Shown here one piece after another: positions 5,701 through 35,421 of a DNA stretch of 35,421 bases (positions are counted from its first letter, which is position 1; each line of letters begins with the position of its first letter). The translations under genes and the position numbers were made by a program. This stretch comes from a virus (lineage: Duplodnaviria; Heunggongvirae; Uroviricota; Caudoviricetes). The DNA lies in IMG/VR virus record IMGVR_UViG_2751185971_000005, positions 1-35,421 of that record, one strand, 5' to 3'. Under the pieces are notes generated by a model. It made no database searches. It worked only from the letters and a program-made list of their open reading frames with translations, and was not told where the DNA came from.

Positions 5701-6978
5701 CTATGGTTTTTTATTAGAATCTTCGCCACTAAATAAATTATAATAAATTGATTTTATTAGATATCTGTCAGAATCTATATGGTCAGCACGAGTAGCATGC
5801 TCTAATGTTTCAAATGCTAGGGTTTGTGCGGCTTCAGCAAAAATTCCAGGCCAACCCTTACTCAGCATCGACAGTCCTTTAAGGACCCTTATCTGAATTT
5901 CCCTCATACTGGCACCATCGCGCGCAACAGGTGAGAAAAAGTCTTCAAGTAGATCGTTATTCTGAAGTGGTGCAACATGTACAGAAGGATATTTCACTTC
6001 TATTTCATCAGATTTATTCTGCGCGTAAGCGGAAAGTATACGTACACCTCTGCCAATGACATCAATGGCGGTTCCAGGATCGTTCACTGCGGGGGAAAGG
6101 GCTCGGCAGGCTATTTCGGCCATGACGCTAAGACAAAATCGGGGGTCCTGAGCAAATGAACGTACATCCGAGACAATAATCGTCTCAAGTAAATCGGTGC
6201 TGATTGATGACTCCTGGCCCTGACTCAGGTACAAAACTGGCGTGGACGGATGTATGAAACTGCCCGGCTGCGCCACGAGGTATACATGACGGGGATCATT
6301 GGTCAGCAGCTTACTGAGTTTCACCATATCAACATATTCAACATAGCCAATCTTTTTCGGATAAACTGCAACCGTTCCTTTCGGCTGTTCATTGTTCTCA
6401 AGCCATGGATATCCGCCGAGACAGGGATTTCTTGCTCTCGCAATAAATGTTTCGATGGCCGCCTGTTCTACTTTTGCCGTTGTCTCACCAACCCTCCCCA
6501 GAGAGGTCAAATGCTGTATCCAGCGAAGCAATGTGATGAGGATTAAGGCAATGACAACCAGTGTTACAATGAATAAAATGACTCTCCCCCTTTCTCCATA
6601 AGCTCCCATATTGAGGGCAATAATCCCTACCAGACTGAAGAGAAAAGAACCGATGAAGGTGGCCAGTACATTTTGTGTGGTGACGTCTTCAACAACTAAA
6701 CGAGTAGCTCTGGGAGTCACATTAGTAGTGGCTGAACCGTAGGCTGTGACCATGATGCTCAGCGAAAATGTGGTCACTGCCAGCATACTCGATGCCAGTA
6801 TGTTCAGAATGTTATCGACTGCTTCCGCACCAACCTTCACGGAAACCGACTCAGGTATCATTGATTTAAAAAGAATTGATAAAAGGGCCGTTATTATTGC
6901 GACAATTGCGAATAACGTTGCCCTGAACCATAGTTTTTTAAATGTCTGCTTCAGCATCCATTTCCAGCGTGAAATCAT
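5701..6978 (-). CDS. DUF2254-like predicted membrane protein
   Basis: N-terminal multi-pass hydrophobic region followed by a soluble domain; start placed at the ATG at 6978, which has a GAGGGA Shine-Dalgarno (the track's longest ORF starts at 6993). Confidence 0.7.
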   Translation of the reverse strand: MISRWKWMLKQTFKKLWFRATLFAIVAIITALLSILFKSMIPESVSVKVGAEAVDNILNILASSMLAVTTFSLSIMVTAYGSATTNVTPRATRLVVEDVTTQNVLATFIGSFLFSLVGIIALNMGAYGERGRVILFIVTLVVIALILITLLRWIQHLTSLGRVGETTAKVEQAAIETFIARARNPCLGGYPWLENNEQPKGTVAVYPKKIGYVEYVDMVKLSKLLTNDPRHVYLVAQPGSFIHPSTPVLYLSQGQESSISTDLLETIIVSDVRSFAQDPRFCLSVMAEIACRALSPAVNDPGTAIDVIGRGVRILSAYAQNKSDEIEVKYPSVHVAPLQNNDLLEDFFSPVARDGASMREIQIRVLKGLSMLSKGWPGIFAEAAQTLAFETLEHATRADHIDSDRYLIKSIYYNLFSGEDSNKKP

Positions 6979-30332: not shown

Positions 30333-30683
30333 TCACTTAAGCCGTTCACGGGCCGTCTTCGCCTTGTGGCATGGCCAGCACAGGCTCTGCAGATTACCGT
30401 CTGCATCCGTACCGCCATGCGCTTTCGGAATGATGTGGTCCACAGTTCTGGCTTCAACGGCTCTCCCATTGCGCAGGCAGTTCTGACACAAATGATTATC
30501 ACGCTTCAGTATGCGCGCACGTATGGCATCCCATTTCGAGCCATAGCCACGCTGGTGGCGGCTCAGTCCGCGTTGATGTTGTGTCCAACCTTCGCCGCGA
30601 TGCTTATCGCAGTAGCCAGAACTGTCCGTCGTTGTGCCTGCACAGCCTCGCTTACGGCATGCACGAGGGATTTGTGATGGCAT
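30333..30683 (-). CDS. HNH endonuclease (terminase-associated)
   Basis: CxxC...HIIPKAHGGTD...N...CWPCH HNH/zinc motif; start at the ATG at 30683 with GAGGAG Shine-Dalgarno; directly upstream of the terminase genes. Confidence 0.88.
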   Translation of the reverse strand: MPSQIPRACRKRGCAGTTTDSSGYCDKHRGEGWTQHQRGLSRHQRGYGSKWDAIRARILKRDNHLCQNCLRNGRAVEARTVDHIIPKAHGGTDADGNLQSLCWPCHKAKTARERLK

Positions 30684-30725
30684 AGAATTTCGCTCCTCTA
30701 AAAAATATTCTGCTCTCACCGTCGG

Positions 30726-31119: not shown

Positions 31120-31156
31120 CCCCGGACTGTTCCAGCAGCCGGGGTTTTGTTTTTTT
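31120..31156. terminator. Rho-independent terminator (CCCCGG-N13-CCGGGG flanked by A-run and T-run), bidirectional
   Basis: GC stem with flanking AAAAA and TTTTGTTTTTTT; lies just downstream of the 93-aa gene on the minus strand. Confidence 0.7.
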
Positions 31157-31436
31157 ATTTACTGCCCTGGGTGCGGCATCTGGCTATTTCATTCCTGGCT
31201 TTAGTGTCACCGCGACAGATACAACGAACCGTGTCACCCGCCAGCGTAGTGATGTAGGCCTCATCCGTTTTTTCCACCGAAATGCATGGTACATTTCCAT
31301 CCAGGCAATACTCCACCAGGGCAGCAAGGTGAGTGTTGCGCGGGTAAAATTCCAGGCGATACATATTCCCCAGAACATGCACTTCTTCAACCTGGCGCCC
31401 ATCTTCCGTTACCGTGATTTTTTTCAGCGCGTACAT
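31155..31436 (-). CDS. Hypothetical Cys-containing protein (93 aa) downstream of the endolysin
   Basis: ATG at 31436 with GGAGG Shine-Dalgarno 5 nt upstream; five Cys including a CxC pair; no transmembrane segment, so not a canonical spanin. Confidence 0.55.
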   Translation of the reverse strand: MYALKKITVTEDGRQVEEVHVLGNMYRLEFYPRNTHLAALVEYCLDGNVPCISVEKTDEAYITTLAGDTVRCICRGDTKARNEIARCRTQGSK

Positions 31437-31506
31437 ACGTACCTCCGTTCTTTCGTTTTTTGAGCAATAAAAAAGCCGCTCATGGCGGCCCTGTATGTTT
31501 TGCAAG

Positions 31507-31890
31507 CTATCGCTTCAATTGAAAATGTGGGCCGTCTTTAAGCGTCCGCCAGTCCCCGCCCCATTCGATGGCTGTTCCCAGCTCTGCGGCAGCCTGCTTA
31601 AATGCCTGCGCGATTTTCTCGTACAGAGGCCAGTCCCATGACACCTGGCTGCCAACCCAGGCAACAACATCCACCGCATCACCGGTCAGGTGGCGGCTGT
31701 TCATGGTCTGGCTTTTCCCTTCCGCGACCAGCTGTTTCTGGCGTTCTTTCGTGCGCAGCCCTTCCGTAATACCGAAATCAACCTCCGTCAGCTCCAGCGC
31801 ACGGCGAACGACAGCAACCAGCTGTGGTTTAACGCCCTCCAGATTCTTTTCGCTGCGACGACTGAATCTGAATTTACCCGACATATTCAC
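31507..31890 (-). CDS. Endolysin, peptidase M15 family (zinc metallopeptidase type)
   Basis: 127 aa with SRHLTGDAVD ... DGPHFQL zinc-ligand pattern typical of M15 endolysins; sits within the holin cluster. Confidence 0.85.
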   Translation of the reverse strand: MNMSGKFRFSRRSEKNLEGVKPQLVAVVRRALELTEVDFGITEGLRTKERQKQLVAEGKSQTMNSRHLTGDAVDVVAWVGSQVSWDWPLYEKIAQAFKQAAAELGTAIEWGGDWRTLKDGPHFQLKR

Positions 31891-32162
31891 CTCAATAATG
31901 GAAAGATTTTTGTGACGTTCCCGCGCGCGCGTATCACCAGCACGCAGAACAGCAGATTAAAAAACACTTCCAGCCAGCCCGTTGCTAACGGGCGACCACA
32001 CAGATAGCTGAGGGGCGCAAAGGCATACAGCAGCATCAGCAACCAGGCCAGCCATGACATCAGCGGTTTATGTCTGGAATCACGACGACGATAAAAAAAG
32101 AGCGTCAGCACGATAACCGTGCATAACGCCACATTCAGCAATCCGGGAAGGTTACTTAACAT
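31887..32162 (-). CDS. Membrane protein of the lysis cassette (91 aa; holin/antiholin-like)
   Basis: ATG at 32162 preceded by GGAGGAGG; several hydrophobic segments; overlaps the holin stop by 11 nt and the endolysin start by 4 nt. Confidence 0.6.
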   Translation of the reverse strand: MLSNLPGLLNVALCTVIVLTLFFYRRRDSRHKPLMSWLAWLLMLLYAFAPLSYLCGRPLATGWLEVFFNLLFCVLVIRARGNVTKIFPLLR

Positions 32163-32544
32163 TGCCGCCTCCTCCACCCCGCAGGCGGGAGAACAGGCCG
32201 GACACCAGCGATGCAATATCCTGCTGGTGGATGAACGAGAGAATCTTCACCGACACCACCGCCACCAGCACCGCACACAGTGCATCCGCCGATGTACCGT
32301 CATAACCTGTTTTTGATGCAATCCAGGCTGACAGCACATGCGCACCCAGCACGCCAACGATAAACGACACCAGAAAATGCGCCGCCACACGCCAGGCTGA
32401 AAGCGCCTGCGGCATCGTTGCCACAAATAACGCCCCAGCGAACGCCCCAAACACAATCCCGAAATCCGTTCCGGTAAACAGCCCGAATACCGTCGCCCCG
32501 CCGAGCGCCGCAGCCGTACCGGAACCGGACAAGGGTTCAGACAT
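32152..32544 (-). CDS. Putative holin (130 aa, Gly/Ala-rich transmembrane segments)
   Basis: ATG at 32544 with AGGAG Shine-Dalgarno; MSEPLSGSGTAAALGGATVFG... followed by several transmembrane segments; located upstream of the endolysin. Confidence 0.7.
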   Translation of the reverse strand: MSEPLSGSGTAAALGGATVFGLFTGTDFGIVFGAFAGALFVATMPQALSAWRVAAHFLVSFIVGVLGAHVLSAWIASKTGYDGTSADALCAVLVAVVSVKILSFIHQQDIASLVSGLFSRLRGGGGGNVK

Positions 32545-32631
32545 ACTTTTTCTCCTGTAAATAAAAAAGGGCCACCAACGACCCGTAAAAAACACCCGTC
32601 AAAGGCACCCGCAGATACCTTTTGTGTGGTG

Positions 32632-32784
32632 TTATTCAGATTTACGCAGTAAAGGCCAGAGTACGGCCAGCGCCATCGCCACCAGCACACCATCTGCCAG
32701 CACCGACATCAGCCGTCCGGTGAAATCCACCGCCACTACCAGAAACAGCAGGATGGCAGCCAGCACAAGGCGCGCACTTTTCAC
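32632..32784 (-). CDS. Small membrane protein (50 aa), GTG start overlapping the TerB-like stop
   Basis: GTG at 32784-32782 overlaps the TGA at 32783-32781 (GTGA); encodes VKSARLVLAAILLFLVVAVDFTGRLMSVLADGVLVAMALAVLWPLLRKSE; below the track's size cutoff. Confidence 0.45.
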   Translation of the reverse strand: MKSARLVLAAILLFLVVAVDFTGRLMSVLADGVLVAMALAVLWPLLRKSE

Positions 32785-33206
32785 AGGTACTGCTCCAGCG
32801 GCAACTGCAGCGCCTGAGCAATTTTCTTGAGCTGCGCTTCTTCATCCGGACCAATGCCATCCTGGTCAGCAATATCGAGACACAGGCACAGCACATCAAC
32901 CGCTTCGGCGGTTCCTGCCACATCAGCCAGTTCACGCAAAGCCTGAGCATTCGCACTACGAGGTGACGCTTCATAACGGGCGCGGATATTTGCACTCATT
33001 TGTGCAATCTCACCGGAGAACGGCGCAAAGGCAGGAAGTGCTGCAATGGTTTTTTCCAGTACAGCGATTTCTTTCGCATCACAGGTGCCGTCGGCGAATG
33101 CTATGGAATACGCGCCCCAGACGGTCGCCTCCACTGCGTCGCGGTTCTCCATCTTCTTCACTTCAGTAATGGCCTTGCGGGTTTTCTTTTTGAAAATACC
33201 AAACAT
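32781..33206 (-). CDS. TerB-like (tellurite-resistance TerB / DjlA N-terminal domain family) protein
   Basis: 141 aa with paired AFADG...E / DQDG...EE helical motif pattern typical of TerB-fold proteins. Confidence 0.65.
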   Translation of the reverse strand: MFGIFKKKTRKAITEVKKMENRDAVEATVWGAYSIAFADGTCDAKEIAVLEKTIAALPAFAPFSGEIAQMSANIRARYEASPRSANAQALRELADVAGTAEAVDVLCLCLDIADQDGIGPDEEAQLKKIAQALQLPLEQYL

Positions 33207-33344
33207 CGTGACTTTTCCTTTTAGTGGGTGAGCCTGCGCCCGGGGGTGACCAGCCCACAGAGAAAGTCACACTGACCATCCCGTAAGCTCACCCCTGAAA
33301 GGCTCTGTGGTTTTTTTGATGTGCGCCGGACGTGGCGCGGATAT

Positions 33345-33372
33345 AAAAAAGGCCCGCCGCAGCGAGCCTGTT
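33345..33372 (-). terminator. Rho-independent terminator downstream of the AraC-family gene
   Basis: Minus-strand hairpin GGCTCGC-TGCG-GCGGGCC followed by TTTTTT. Confidence 0.6.
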
Positions 33373-33393
33373 TTCAATGAGTGCAAAATTCAA

Positions 33394-34137
33394 TTATTCT
33401 TGAGTAACACTTAAACTCATCTCATTGAATGCAGCCATCCTGTAACCTGCCGGTGTAACACCAAAATAACTCCTGAATACGCTGATAAAATAAGATGTAA
33501 AATTATAGCCACACTGAGCAGCGATTCTGTTGATGGCGCAACGAGATTGATTCAACAGCATTGCTGCCATTCTCATTCTCTCTGTAAGCAACAACTCACT
33601 GAAACAGGTGCCTTCTTCTTTCAGTCTTTTTTTTAACAAACTTTCACTGATACATAACCGCGAAGACACATCTCTCAGAGTCCAGTTTGCTGCAATGTCC
33701 GTACGAAACAATGCACTAAGCCTGTCACTAATATTGCCAATACACGCGGTCAGAAACGACGAAAACATTTTCTCTGATGAGAAAAACGCCAGACACGAAA
33801 AGGAAAGCATTTCCGCTAAATTGTCCGTATGAATCTTTTCCTCACAAAGATAATCAATCAGGATGCCCATCAATTCTGCCTTGGGAAAACTCACGCAAAG
33901 ATATCGTGGTATTTGCCGGACTAAAACTACATCCTGTTTTTCGTCTCCACACAACAGGTAACGGATAATTGTCGATTCACTGAGACTTATTCGCCGAAAA
34001 CATTCCGAAAAGGGCAATAACGATCCAGCTCCCCCCCTGACAAGAAGTGCACTACCACTTTCCAGAGAGAGCTCTTTTCCTTCAAAGAGCACAACAAACG
34101 GGGAATGAACAAAAACAACAGAACAAGCTTCATTCAT
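33394..34137 (-). CDS. AraC-family transcriptional regulator, AppY/GadX-like (prophage moron)
   Basis: C-terminal AraC-type HTH (SESLLKKRLKEEGTCFSELLLTERMRMAAMLL...CGYNFTSYFISVFRSYFGVTPAGY) resembling AppY of DLP12; AT-rich; start placed at the ATG at 34137 (track ORF starts at a TTG at 34197). Confidence 0.85.
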   Translation of the reverse strand: MNEACSVVFVHSPFVVLFEGKELSLESGSALLVRGGAGSLLPFSECFRRISLSESTIIRYLLCGDEKQDVVLVRQIPRYLCVSFPKAELMGILIDYLCEEKIHTDNLAEMLSFSCLAFFSSEKMFSSFLTACIGNISDRLSALFRTDIAANWTLRDVSSRLCISESLLKKRLKEEGTCFSELLLTERMRMAAMLLNQSRCAINRIAAQCGYNFTSYFISVFRSYFGVTPAGYRMAAFNEMSLSVTQE

Positions 34138-34261
34138 ATCAATTGCCCTGACATTACTGGTCACAAGATAAGTATATATCGATTTACAAAAATACAAGCC
34201 GAAAGACCAGTATTCGCAACCACCAGCGCGTTTAACGTCCTGTACCGTTTTTCAGGCATAA

Positions 34262-34288
34262 AAAAACCCGCTCAGTGGCGGGTTCTTA
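34262..34288 (-). terminator. Candidate tR' terminator of the late operon
   Basis: Minus-strand hairpin AACCCGCCACTGAGCGGGTT followed by TTTTTTT, about 105-130 bp downstream of the Q stop codon, as for lambdoid tR'. Confidence 0.6.
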
Positions 34289-34324
34289 AATCTTATCAAC
34301 GGTAGACATACAAAGCCCATCGTT

Positions 34325-34360
34325 GGAAAAATCTTATCCATATTTTTTGGAAAAAGCAAG
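34325..34360 (-). promoter_or_regulatory. Candidate late promoter P_R' (-35 TTGCTT, -10 TAAGAT-like)
   Basis: Minus-strand sigma-70-like hexamers with about 17-bp spacing between Q and the tR' hairpin; sequence inspection only. Confidence 0.35.
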
Positions 34361-34390
34361 CATTATGTCGCCATCTTCGGCGAAAATCAT

Positions 34391-35143
34391 TTATCTCGTC
34401 ACTTTTCTTAATTGCGCCTCAGCATATGCTTCTTCCTGCCAGCACTTTGTAACCAGTTTATCAATGACATCTGCATATCCTTTGTACCACTGATAATCTG
34501 TCAGGTCTGGTACCAGCTTCTGGACATGATGCCGCGCCAGTGTGGTTGGTAAACGGCTAAACCGGTTTCCATTGCAACGCCCACAAATCTTATAAACAGG
34601 CGTGCCATGAAGCCGGGTCCTTTTTTCATCCAGGACAATACCTTTACCCTTACACCCTCTGCACGCTGTGCTGACTTCTCCCTTACCATGACAATGCTGA
34701 CATAGTTCCTTCACCCACTCTTCCTTGATAACAGATTCCCCGCTTCTGGAGTGTTTCACCACTTCGCGCAATACATTATGAAATCCAGTACCAGCACAAT
34801 GCTCACAGCGAGCCTTACTTGCCGCAGACCTGGAATAATCAGCAAAGGCAAAATTCACAAGGTAAGGGATGATCTGTAACCGGGTTTCTTCACTCAATTT
34901 GTTCAATGTCGGGTTATCCAGTGCCATCGCGTAATTGAGCAGACCTTCAATCGCAAATTGAGGATCCTGAACACCAACTTTTGCCAGGAATAAGGCAAAC
35001 CCAAGCGGTGCTTTCGACTGCACCATCCCCTGCGCAGCCATTACATCCGTAATTGTTAAACCACCAGAGCCTGTCGTCGGTGCGTCATCGCTCAATTTTG
35101 GAGATTTTGGGGAGTAATATTTCGGTAAGGCTTCAAGGTTCAT
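34391..35143 (-). CDS. Late-gene antitermination protein Q (Qin/82-type, zinc-finger Q family)
   Basis: 250 aa with MNLEALPKYYSPKSPKLSDDAPTTGSGGLTITDVMAAQGM... and CEHC...CQHCHGKG...CRGCKGKG...CGRCNG zinc motifs, very close to E. coli Qin-type Q proteins; GGAGAA Shine-Dalgarno. Confidence 0.9.
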   Translation of the reverse strand: MNLEALPKYYSPKSPKLSDDAPTTGSGGLTITDVMAAQGMVQSKAPLGFALFLAKVGVQDPQFAIEGLLNYAMALDNPTLNKLSEETRLQIIPYLVNFAFADYSRSAASKARCEHCAGTGFHNVLREVVKHSRSGESVIKEEWVKELCQHCHGKGEVSTACRGCKGKGIVLDEKRTRLHGTPVYKICGRCNGNRFSRLPTTLARHHVQKLVPDLTDYQWYKGYADVIDKLVTKCWQEEAYAEAQLRKVTR

Positions 35144-35156
35144 GCTCGTTCTCCAC

Positions 35157-35421
35157 TTACGCCAGTACGCCTATTGCCAGCGCACGATCGATAAAACGAA
35201 ATATCAGCTCCAGCTGGGAACCATACTTCTCTTCAAATGCCACGGTATCCGCATGCAGCTCGTCGTGATGCTTTCTGCACAAAGGCAACACAAAGAGGTC
35301 ATGCGCTTTTGTTCCCATTCCACCCTGACCGTGACCTATCAGGTGGTGGGGATCATCAGCGGGCTTTCCACAACATGCACACGGCTGTGTCTTAACCCAG
35401 CGCGTGTACTTTTCATTAACC
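35157..35421 (-). CDS. C-terminal part of a DUF968 / HNH-like protein (YdfU-like), partial at window edge
   Basis: Minus-strand frame ...VNEKYTRWVKTQPCACCGKPADDPHHLIGHGQGGMGTKAHDLFVLPLCRKHHDELH... ending at the TAA at 35157-35159; directly upstream of Q, as ydfU is in Qin. Confidence 0.6.
   Translation of the reverse strand, partial: VNEKYTRWVKTQPCACCGKPADDPHHLIGHGQGGMGTKAHDLFVLPLCRKHHDELHADTVAFEEKYGSQLELIFRFIDRALAIGVLA

Follow-up and report, generated by a model that had tools for sequence, protein, structure and literature searches.

The gene pair examined here has its closest described relatives in phage P1, whose tciA-tciB-tciC genes bear names ('tellurite/colicin resistance, inhibition of cell division') that were given by homology only. 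There, as here, TciB is a DUF3927 protein encoded directly abutting the TciA orthologue; the P1 genes are uncharacterised, although transcripts of tciA and tciB have been measured during P1vir lytic infection and tciA, tciB and tciC were non-essential in a CRISPR interference (CRISPRi) screen (PMC10695390). TciA matches the TerB family, as does the TerB of the terZABCDE operon (KP-TerB, PDB 2JXU; COG3793, PDB 2OU3), and phage TerB genes have been termed 'standalone' or 'single' in publications (PMC7824862, PMC3728262, PMC8421299), and the small TciB partner was overlooked outside P1 and PHROG annotation. Here the analysis concerned a 35,421-nt stretch of a tailed phage (Caudoviricetes; IMG/VR record IMGVR_UViG_2751185971_000005, positions 1 to 35,421; hereafter the window), in which a 141-amino acid (aa) TerB-family protein and a 50-aa small hydrophobic protein are encoded on the minus strand, as are all genes of the region, in the reading order Q, tR', AraC-family gene, tciA, tciB, holins and endolysin. 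Judged by sequence, the pair is a lambdoid (phiP27-like) prophage copy of P1 tciA-tciB and no new gene family; an earlier note on this DNA had treated it as an unrecognised module, but the genes already bore the names tciA/tciB in the P1 genome record. The structured leader RNA that precedes tciA is what most merits further work.

TciA (32781-33206, minus strand) is a six-helix bundle with a conserved basic, disordered N-terminus. Its match to Pfam TerB (PF05099; 29.9 bits, cut-off 24.4) spanned 47 residues only, but the protein fell into phrog_632 ('tellurite resistance') with an E-value of 5.6e-65 and a profile of the TciA family matched KP-TerB (2JXU) with an E-value of 1.1e-11 across 126 residues. 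The fold was all-alpha, as in TerB, giving homology by both sequence and fold, so that the TerB-like character claimed in the earlier note was borne out by hidden Markov model, profile match and fold alike. The TerB family is defined by a repeated pair of acidic DG...E motifs, and in TciA D39-G40...E46 and D116-G117...E122 were invariant or at least 90% conserved among 59 sequences covering both TciA clades. The comparison with DjlA suggested in the same note gave only a weak match (E-value 0.035, 13.7 bits against a cut-off of 162), which leaves TciA outside that family; PF04391 (DUF533) was co-listed for many TciA proteins of the second clade. The window TciA shared 86.5% identity with P1 TciA, each being 141 aa long. 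Its exact sequence was present on 766 public contigs and that of the window TciB on 732, under labels such as 'Tellurite resistance protein TciA' and 'DUF3927 family protein', and this occurrence of the exact proteins on more than 700 public contigs is the reason for not proposing a new gene family. Across 69 alleles, tciA showed 2185 synonymous against 527 non-synonymous codon differences, which points to strong purifying selection.

The GTG start codon of TciB (32632-32784, minus strand) and the TGA stop codon of tciA share bases (GTGA). TciB matched DUF3927 (PF13064; E-value 1.1e-15, 57.8 bits against a cut-off of 25, 45 of 53 model positions) and phrog_1470 ('TciB-like', E-value 3.1e-25), and was about 50% identical to P1 TciB. 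Residues D20-F21-T22, D31 and P44 were invariant, and two hydrophobic stretches (residues 5-19 and 25-46) flanked the D-F-T motif; a hairpin with both termini in the cytoplasm would fit the charge distribution. Codon differences in tciB (148 synonymous, 159 non-synonymous) were still enriched for synonymous changes, more weakly than in tciA. Family matches, invariant residues and synonymous enrichment together show that this 50-aa open reading frame (ORF) is conserved.

The pairing of the two genes, which the earlier note had proposed as a possible two-gene module, with a check for co-occurrence in other prophages, proved to be general. Directly after tciA, tciB was found in all 80 of the closest viral contigs, with TciB 55-100% identical and TciA at least 93% identical to the window proteins, and in 11 of 13 loci from different species, including five in which TciA was only 40-45% identical. 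Both unpaired species loci were decayed remnants, one with a truncated tciB (contig L005) and one in which tciA had been lost and the leader joined to a degenerate tciB (contig L014). The first remnant lies after a methyltransferase gene (L005:4028-4135) and the fused leader occupies L014:3891-4162, and leaders broken off midway were also seen (L174:3034-3147, L187:1124-1240); such decayed remnants indicate that tciAB is lost as well as gained. Pairing was retained where TciA was only 30-45% identical, in phages of Enterobacterales, Erwinia and Pseudomonas. Among these were the obligately lytic N4-like phages Salmonella FSL SP-058 and FSL SP-076 and Escherichia Pollock, lytic Erwinia jumbo phages (gp6, a TerB protein, followed by gp7, a 60-aa TciB-like protein) and the lytic Pseudomonas phage phiK7B1 (a 46-aa TciB-like ORF). 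That obligately lytic phages carry the pair suggests a role in the lytic cycle rather than in lysogenic conversion.

Three read-through ORFs (P0061, P0414 and P0471; 170-197 aa) join TerB and DUF3927 at the overlap; they are probably frameshifts, and such fusions show that the topologies of the two products are compatible. One TerB-DUF3927 fusion ORF has five member sequences at NCBI, mislabelled 'zinc-finger family protein'. In bacterial genomes, cassette DNA was found in 388 of 5426 complete Escherichia coli genomes; 171 of the places lay on plasmids, and there the match was confined to tciA (about 81% identity), as with P1. A record named 'Actinobacillus phage vB_Apl-pPE4' (PP818812.1, 17432-18407) shared 94% DNA identity over tciA, tciB and the holin gene, and its assignment to Actinobacillus pleuropneumoniae as host looks doubtful. 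The N4-like Vibrio phage BUCT194 (L100, 424-2426) carries in a row a TerB-family gene, a gene for a 339-aa TerC-like membrane protein (with the motif ...SVDNLFV...) and a tciA-like gene, with no DUF3927 gene. A TerC-like neighbour was seen only in this phage. The gene order hints at cooperation of phage TerB proteins with transporters of the TerC type, and a TerC-family transporter may be the counterpart in the host.

Upstream of tciA lies the structured 5' leader, about 105 nt long (33207-33312, minus strand; 134 bits with covariance model R1). In helix P1, CCTTTCAGGGGTGAGC pairs with GCTCACCCACTAAAAGG, which places the Shine-Dalgarno sequence in the stem; helix P3 is the inner stem; and in helix P2 the 5' tail CCACAGAG pairs with CTCTGTGG of the apical loop. 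Because helix P2, whose 5' strand abuts helix P1, crosses both P1 and P3, the leader would either bend back on itself or switch between P2 and P1/P3 states. Conservation of the leader nucleotides extended over three settings, namely the TciA clade of the window, a second TciA clade (O157, Pantoea, Franconibacter type) with a protein only about 40% identical, and the jumbo-phage genes. A search with a 17-nt core motif of the leader retrieved 120 viral stretches, comprising 99 with tciA about 98 nt downstream, 14 chance coding matches, two truncated leaders and five that ran off contig ends; tciA thus followed the motif in 99 of the 101 genuine scorable copies.

Several lines of evidence support the helices. 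RNAalifold run on an unfitted MAFFT alignment of six sequences recovered the P1/P3 hairpin with six compensatory pairs. The hairpin that pairs the Shine-Dalgarno sequence was the minimum-free-energy fold in six of seven sequence types, opening of that sequence costing 2.4-6.7 kcal/mol, and leader members other than the window copy had folding z-scores of -2.8 to -4.1. Among 20 lambdoid leaders, 94.5% of cells paired and five pairs showed double changes, compared with 0-2 in slid controls, and a covariance model built from those 20 found the jumbo-phage leaders at 59-67 bits (E-value about 1e-12). When the jumbo-phage sequences were included (30 leaders), 93.7% of cells paired and double changes occurred in 12 pairs (45 cells, a count that overstates independent events as the sequences are related), against 2-6 pairs (3-11 cells) in slid controls; 12 pairs were reached by one of 500 shuffles. 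For this count the covariance-model alignment, which leans toward the modelled structure, was used, MAFFT having put the jumbo-phage leaders one column off. Helix P2, which stands outside the model, changes from CCACAGAG/CTCTGTGG to CCGTAGAG/CTCTACGG in the jumbo phages.

Some observations weigh against a conserved regulatory structure. The alignment that yielded the main count of covarying pairs had been fitted to the modelled fold, and the double changes in helix P2 come from one lineage (five jumbo phages) and from sequences read by eye. The window leader itself had a folding z-score of only -1.6, and an alternative fold with an open Shine-Dalgarno sequence was isoenergetic with the sequestering one (0.3 kcal/mol apart). 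The leader is also absent from the P1, N4-like and Pseudomonas copies and is hence dispensable for the pair.

Two other readings of this segment were set aside. A fold pairing GGGGTGA with the proximal TCACCCC, the minimum-free-energy fold of the window leader, was 87% paired across the lambdoid alignment and not conserved, with several pairs broken in 15-17 of 20 sequences and double changes in one pair only. A leader peptide (38-aa ORF, 33163-33279) was rejected as its start ATG is missing from the other leader types. Rfam 15 gave no match on the leader at E-values up to 10 (positions 32400-34500 of the window), where only sub-threshold terminator-like matches were returned, and none on a copy of a second leader subfamily (L009:6064-6170; span 5900-6300, E-values up to 10).

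That second subfamily emerged when the leader model also found related leaders before genes other than tciA in the same contigs, with different helix sequences and the same pairings. Variants of helix P2 there included CCAAAGA/TCTTTGG, GAGAG/CTCTC and GAAAG/CTTTC, with GGCAAA/TTTGCC for helix P3; over all the subfamilies, helix P3 took the forms GGAATAGTC/GATTATTCC, GATGGTC/GACCATC, GGAGTG/CACTCC and GGCAAA/TTTGCC. A second-subfamily motif was present in at least 120 more viral stretches, in which a near-identical leader abuts more than 25 unrelated ORFs; as at tciA, a terminator and a small GC palindrome stand 5' of it. The cargo encodes a glycosyltransferase (phrog_1579), an HNH endonuclease (phrog_3593), tail-J-related unknowns (phrog_13555, phrog_29765) and small membrane proteins, while an Ant-type antirepressor (phrog_63) follows a separate, model-found related copy in contig L122. 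Related copies located by covariance model or motif lie at L122:8879-9004, L009:6064-6170, L007:7028-7134, L010:7951-8057, L098:1498-1614 and, in L221-L224, at about 499-614. The family thus spans temperate enterobacterial phages and lytic Erwinia jumbo phages, and since related leaders precede many unrelated genes, the element is a portable 5' element of phage cargo genes rather than a TerB-specific sensor.

We tentatively propose, as a reading that is plausible and still rather less than evenly balanced, that the leader represents an undescribed family of cis-acting phage RNAs in which a hairpin sequestering the Shine-Dalgarno sequence, combined with loop-tail pairing, gates the translation of accessory cargo. 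The loop-tail pairing would then be either a pseudoknot or a two-state switch, the cargo would lie in late or read-through transcripts, and the signal may be a ligand, RNase III, temperature or a phage protein. On this one element, an unlikely alternative is that conservation of the leader reflects a DNA recombination junction or homology arm for cargo swaps, its structure being incidental or acting at the DNA level. The abutment of the second-subfamily leader on so many unrelated ORFs, with conservation stopping a few bases before each ATG, is what such a junction would give, as are the cassette boundary just 5' of the leader and the unremarkable folding z-score of the copy in the window. Yet the helices are kept through different sequences across subfamilies, in both P3 and P2; many of the pairs are G-U, which become A-C mismatches on the other strand, where the reverse-strand score was about 16 bits compared with about 130 bits; and the 3' arm of the pairing coincides exactly with the Shine-Dalgarno sequence. 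These G-U pairs, the scores specific to one strand and the occlusion of the Shine-Dalgarno sequence favour a role as RNA, with which a role as junction is also compatible.

The limits of the cassette were given by E. coli E21845 (contig L003), which has the same AraC-family and lysis genes at 98-99% identity and lacks exactly 681 bp, its AraC terminator region being joined straight to the pre-holin spacer. The missing unit corresponds to 32636-33316 of the window (minus strand) and comprises leader, tciA and tciB to the stop codon. E. coli relatives carried the AraC-family gene alone, tciAB alone or other inserts between Q and the holin (DUF4145, DNA methyltransferase, tRNA, ORF6N), which upholds the description of this interval as a mosaic cargo site. 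At most lambdoid loci examined, tciAB ended about 90 nt before the holin gene whatever the holin type (50-70% identical, or S-like in L054). The P1 pair is flanked by tRNA genes and ban, within the ban operon that C1 controls through its operator at Pban; N4-like phages have the pair amid early/replication genes, and jumbo phages by tRNAs near the start of the genome record. Since these copies sit elsewhere, it is the lambdoid cargo site, and not the module, that accounts for the neighbouring holin gene.

A consensus scan, crude enough to have missed the presumed late promoter PR' as well, found no sigma-70-like promoter on the minus strand of 31800-35421, and none was seen by eye in 33207-33349. 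A promoter of its own, which had been considered for the pair, thus gained no support, and the cassette sits behind a terminator in the Q-dependent transcript. Given a terminator upstream, no promoter found and a place 3' of Q, PR' and tR', tciAB would most simply be transcribed late in lytic growth by Q-modified, terminator-resistant polymerase, a setting that speaks, though not decisively, against expression in the lysogen. Late, Q-dependent expression agrees with the C1-repressed operon of P1 and with the finding of the pair in lytic phages. A moron in the sense of Juhala and Hendrix has its own promoter and its own terminator; downstream of tciB there are two terminator-like hairpins (32563-32631), the second of which belongs to the backbone. 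By the P1 screen and its absence from close relatives, tciAB is accessory and not essential.

Taken together, these features suggest a composite explanation, to which we give a little less than an even chance, whereby a TerB domain held at the membrane by TciB is made in lytic growth under translational gating. The cassette would be read mainly when Q-modified RNA polymerase passes the terminators, that is, in lytic growth, and the leader hairpin that pairs the Shine-Dalgarno sequence would gate translation of tciA through refolding, RNase processing or some factor. Translation of tciB is probably coupled to that of tciA through the observed GTGA overlap. TciB, in the inner membrane, would hold there the soluble, acidic-motif TerB domain of TciA, a non-covalent layout of 'membrane anchor plus TerB domain' comparable to DjlA, YebE/DUF533 or TerB-TerC, and the module might adjust envelope or ion physiology, either helping the replicating phage or acting against competitors.

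Several points count against this explanation. Contact between TciA and TciB is deduced from synteny and fusions only, and free recombination between alleles of tciA and tciB gives combinations such as TciA at 99% with TciB at 68%. AlphaFold2, applied to a natural TerB-DUF3927 fusion, modelled the TciB part as one continuous helix, with only three alignment rows there, and this model gives nothing firm on TciB topology or docking; the 'two-helix' peptide of the earlier note thus stands as two hydrophobic stretches by hydropathy only, against the single helix of the model. The insensitivity of the promoter scan leaves room for a weak or non-sigma-70 promoter in the cassette. A literature search on the function of TciA, TciB and DUF3927 returned annotations only and no functional test, and PADLOC-DB 2.0 gave no match at E-values up to 1 for TciA, TciB or the AraC-family protein.

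The alternative that survives best, although we consider it unlikely, is that tciAB is a lysogenic-conversion moron, expressed in the lysogen and giving Ter-like protection (exclusion, or colicin or tellurite resistance). Guesses of superinfection exclusion or membrane stress, as made in the earlier note, appear also in Iyer et al. 2021 (PMC7824862) and likewise in the P1 annotation, and two papers link the ter operon with inhibition of phages and with resistance to colicin and tellurite (PMC7824862; PMC8123226). The Q-holin site is the moron/Stx site, PHROGs files both families as 'moron', the cassette is bounded by terminators in a moron-like manner and many E. coli strains carry it (388 of 5426 complete genomes). 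Against this, the stretch from the upstream terminator to tciA yielded no promoter, and the leader sequesters the Shine-Dalgarno sequence. The pair is retained by obligately lytic N4-like, jumbo and Nickievirus phages, it stands in a C1-repressed operon in P1, and TerB occurs without TerC, TerD, TerZ or TerE and without a PADLOC match. Exclusion exerted in lytic growth overlaps with the best explanation, the membrane-held TerB domain.

Distinctly less probable is an accessory of lysis timing, in which TciB with TciA would modulate the adjacent holins as antiholin or holin helper, as had also been suggested. TciB is a small membrane protein and the recurrent spacing of about 90 nt from the holin gene at most lambdoid loci examined, even with divergent or other-type holins, would suit such a role. 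The idea rests on this adjacency, however, and no lysis genes lie beside the pair in P1, N4-like or jumbo phages; related prophages with the same lysis cassette lack tciAB, and two terminator-like hairpins stand between tciB and the holin gene. A selectively neutral passenger hitch-hiking with successful prophages would account for non-essentiality in P1, absence from close relatives and the decayed remnants (L005, L014, L174, L187), but is very improbable given the strong purifying selection on tciA (2185 against 527), the pairing retained across phages of Enterobacterales, Erwinia and Pseudomonas at 30-45% identity and the motifs conserved in both proteins.

Upstream of the cassette, the AraC/XylS-family regulator (33394-34137, minus strand; 247 aa, YdeO/GadX-like; HTH_18 E-value 1.4e-13) is a separate, AT-rich cargo cassette, with a GC content of 41.7% against 50.9% for the window. 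The program-made ORF has 267 aa from a TTG at 34197 (33394-34197), the start adopted in the earlier note, but the public protein, whose exact sequence occurs on at least 1000 contigs, has 247 aa from an ATG at 34137, which is probably the actual start. HTH_18 and HTH_AraC domains were present, and the best NCBIfam models were YdeO (146 bits, cut-off 348) and GadX (98 bits, cut-off 500), both below threshold. The gene is followed by its own intrinsic terminator (33350-33369, minus strand; an 8-bp stem then a T-run, -19.1 kcal/mol). It was present without tciAB in contig L003, and most tciAB-bearing prophages lack it; since related prophages carry either alone, the single moron cluster of the earlier note resolves, as far as sequence comparison goes, into two independent, separately mobile cassettes. 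Prophage AraC-like regulators such as PatE, PsrA/PsrB and AppY are likewise AT-rich, prophage-borne members of the AraC/XylS type, the nearest models here being YdeO and GadX; this likeness is one of gene type, with scores below the YdeO and GadX equivalog cut-offs. PatE and PsrB switch on gad/hde acid-resistance genes (PMC10877973), and the separate occurrence of the AraC-family gene and tciAB shows no functional tie between them.

The remaining layout agreed with the earlier note, in which Q, tR', the AT-rich AraC-family gene with its terminator, the TerB gene, the GTGA overlap, the membrane peptide and the holin had all been placed correctly. The Q late antiterminator (34391-35143, minus strand; PF03589 (Antiterm) E-value 1.4e-53, phrog_127 E-value 1.5e-108) serves as context only; its CXXCXGXG zinc-finger repeats also matched a DnaJ central-domain model (30.9 bits, cut-off 32.7) and an anti-TRAP model. 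A candidate PR' late promoter (34332-34360, minus strand; TTGCTT, 17-nt spacer, TAAGAT) was read by eye only and was unflagged in the consensus scan. The tR' intrinsic terminator 3' of Q (34260-34284, minus strand; AACCCGC-CACTGA-GCGGGTT) has a 7-bp GC stem and seven U (-14.6 kcal/mol), and the homologous stretch of phage SfV has an annotated terminator. Between the AraC terminator and the leader is a small GC palindrome (GCGCCACGTCCGGCGC; 33323-33338, minus strand), which is kept in tciA leaders and has a similar element (GCGCATCGCACGCGC) at the same place before the second leader subfamily; it may serve as a hairpin, as a binding site for a protein or as a junction for recombination. The palindrome persists in L003, where the tciAB cassette is absent.

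Downstream of tciB, two terminator-like hairpins, each then followed by a U-run, lie ahead of the holin ribosome-binding site (32563-32631, minus strand). The second (32569-32584) is kept in L003 without tciAB (L003:3150-3250), its stem sequence differing (GGGTCG/TGGCCC against GGGCC/GGCCC), and it is therefore backbone and not cassette. The pair had been described as lying immediately ahead of the holin, which holds in that the holin is the next gene, but its ATG at 32544 is 87 nt 3' of the end of tciB and the spacer between contains both hairpins. Pas small RNAs (sRNAs) adjoin holins in related prophages, with TerB nearby (bioRxiv 10.64898/2026.05.13.724894), and by analogy an sRNA derived from a 3' end at the pre-holin hairpins is possible. 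The lysis cassette (31507-32544, minus strand), assigned by Pfam and PHROG, comprises a Phage_holin_8 holin (32152-32544), a 3TM holin (31887-32162) and an M15 endolysin (31507-31890). After the endolysin, where a spanin might be expected, comes a 116-aa ORF (31155-31505, minus strand; phrog_33497, function unknown). The L003 counterpart of a 128-aa ORF (30333-30719, minus strand) is annotated as an HNH endonuclease beside a P27-family small terminase, an arrangement that fits a phiP27-like prophage. In another IMG/VR record (L020; UViG_2690316263_000015), the proteins were 99-100% identical from Q through endolysin.

The pair is widespread, in E. coli genomes, P1-like phage-plasmids and N4-like, jumbo and Pseudomonas phages, and its dedicated partner, lytic carriage and Q-dependent gated arrangement turn a 'tellurite resistance' label into a testable hypothesis about the host membrane. 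If the reading of the leader as an RNA family is true, TciA/TciB would be a regulated lytic-phase membrane module and not a lysogenic-conversion gene. A genuine regulatory RNA here would give phage cargo genes a portable means of expression control, bearing on the silencing and timing of morons and on the annotation of prophage intergenic regions in pathogens.

Compared with the terZABCDE operon, none of the Ter partners TerC, TerD, TerE, TerZ and TerA was found nearby, where the neighbours are AraC, DUF3927 and holin genes; the partner of TerB here is a 50-aa DUF3927 peptide. The N-terminal region of DjlA and YebE/DUF533 suggest by analogy the same principle, a TerB-type domain at the cytoplasmic face of the inner membrane, whereas in the present case the anchor would be a separate polypeptide, without a J-domain, and tethering is a deduction. 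With respect to P1, which has tciC, the window has only an 87-nt hairpin-filled spacer before the holin, for which no TciC similarity search was made; the window copy would belong to the late Q-dependent operon of a phiP27-like lambdoid prophage and has a structured leader, in contrast to the P1 copy in the C1-controlled ban operon, which has none. Shine-Dalgarno-sequestering phage leaders are known from the RNase III hairpin of the lambda N leader and the structural switch of cIII. The tciA leader resembles these in being a long, irregular hairpin that occludes the ribosome-binding site and has alternative pairings available; it has no sequence or Rfam relationship to them, and differs in its covarying tail-loop pairing and in its many unrelated cargo genes. 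While the gene content of tciAB is already known and catalogued as P1 tciAB, the additions made here are the obligatory association of TerB with DUF3927 in temperate as well as lytic phages, the exact limits of the cassette with its terminator-bounded setting in the late operon, and an apparently undescribed family of leaders that hide the ribosome-binding site.

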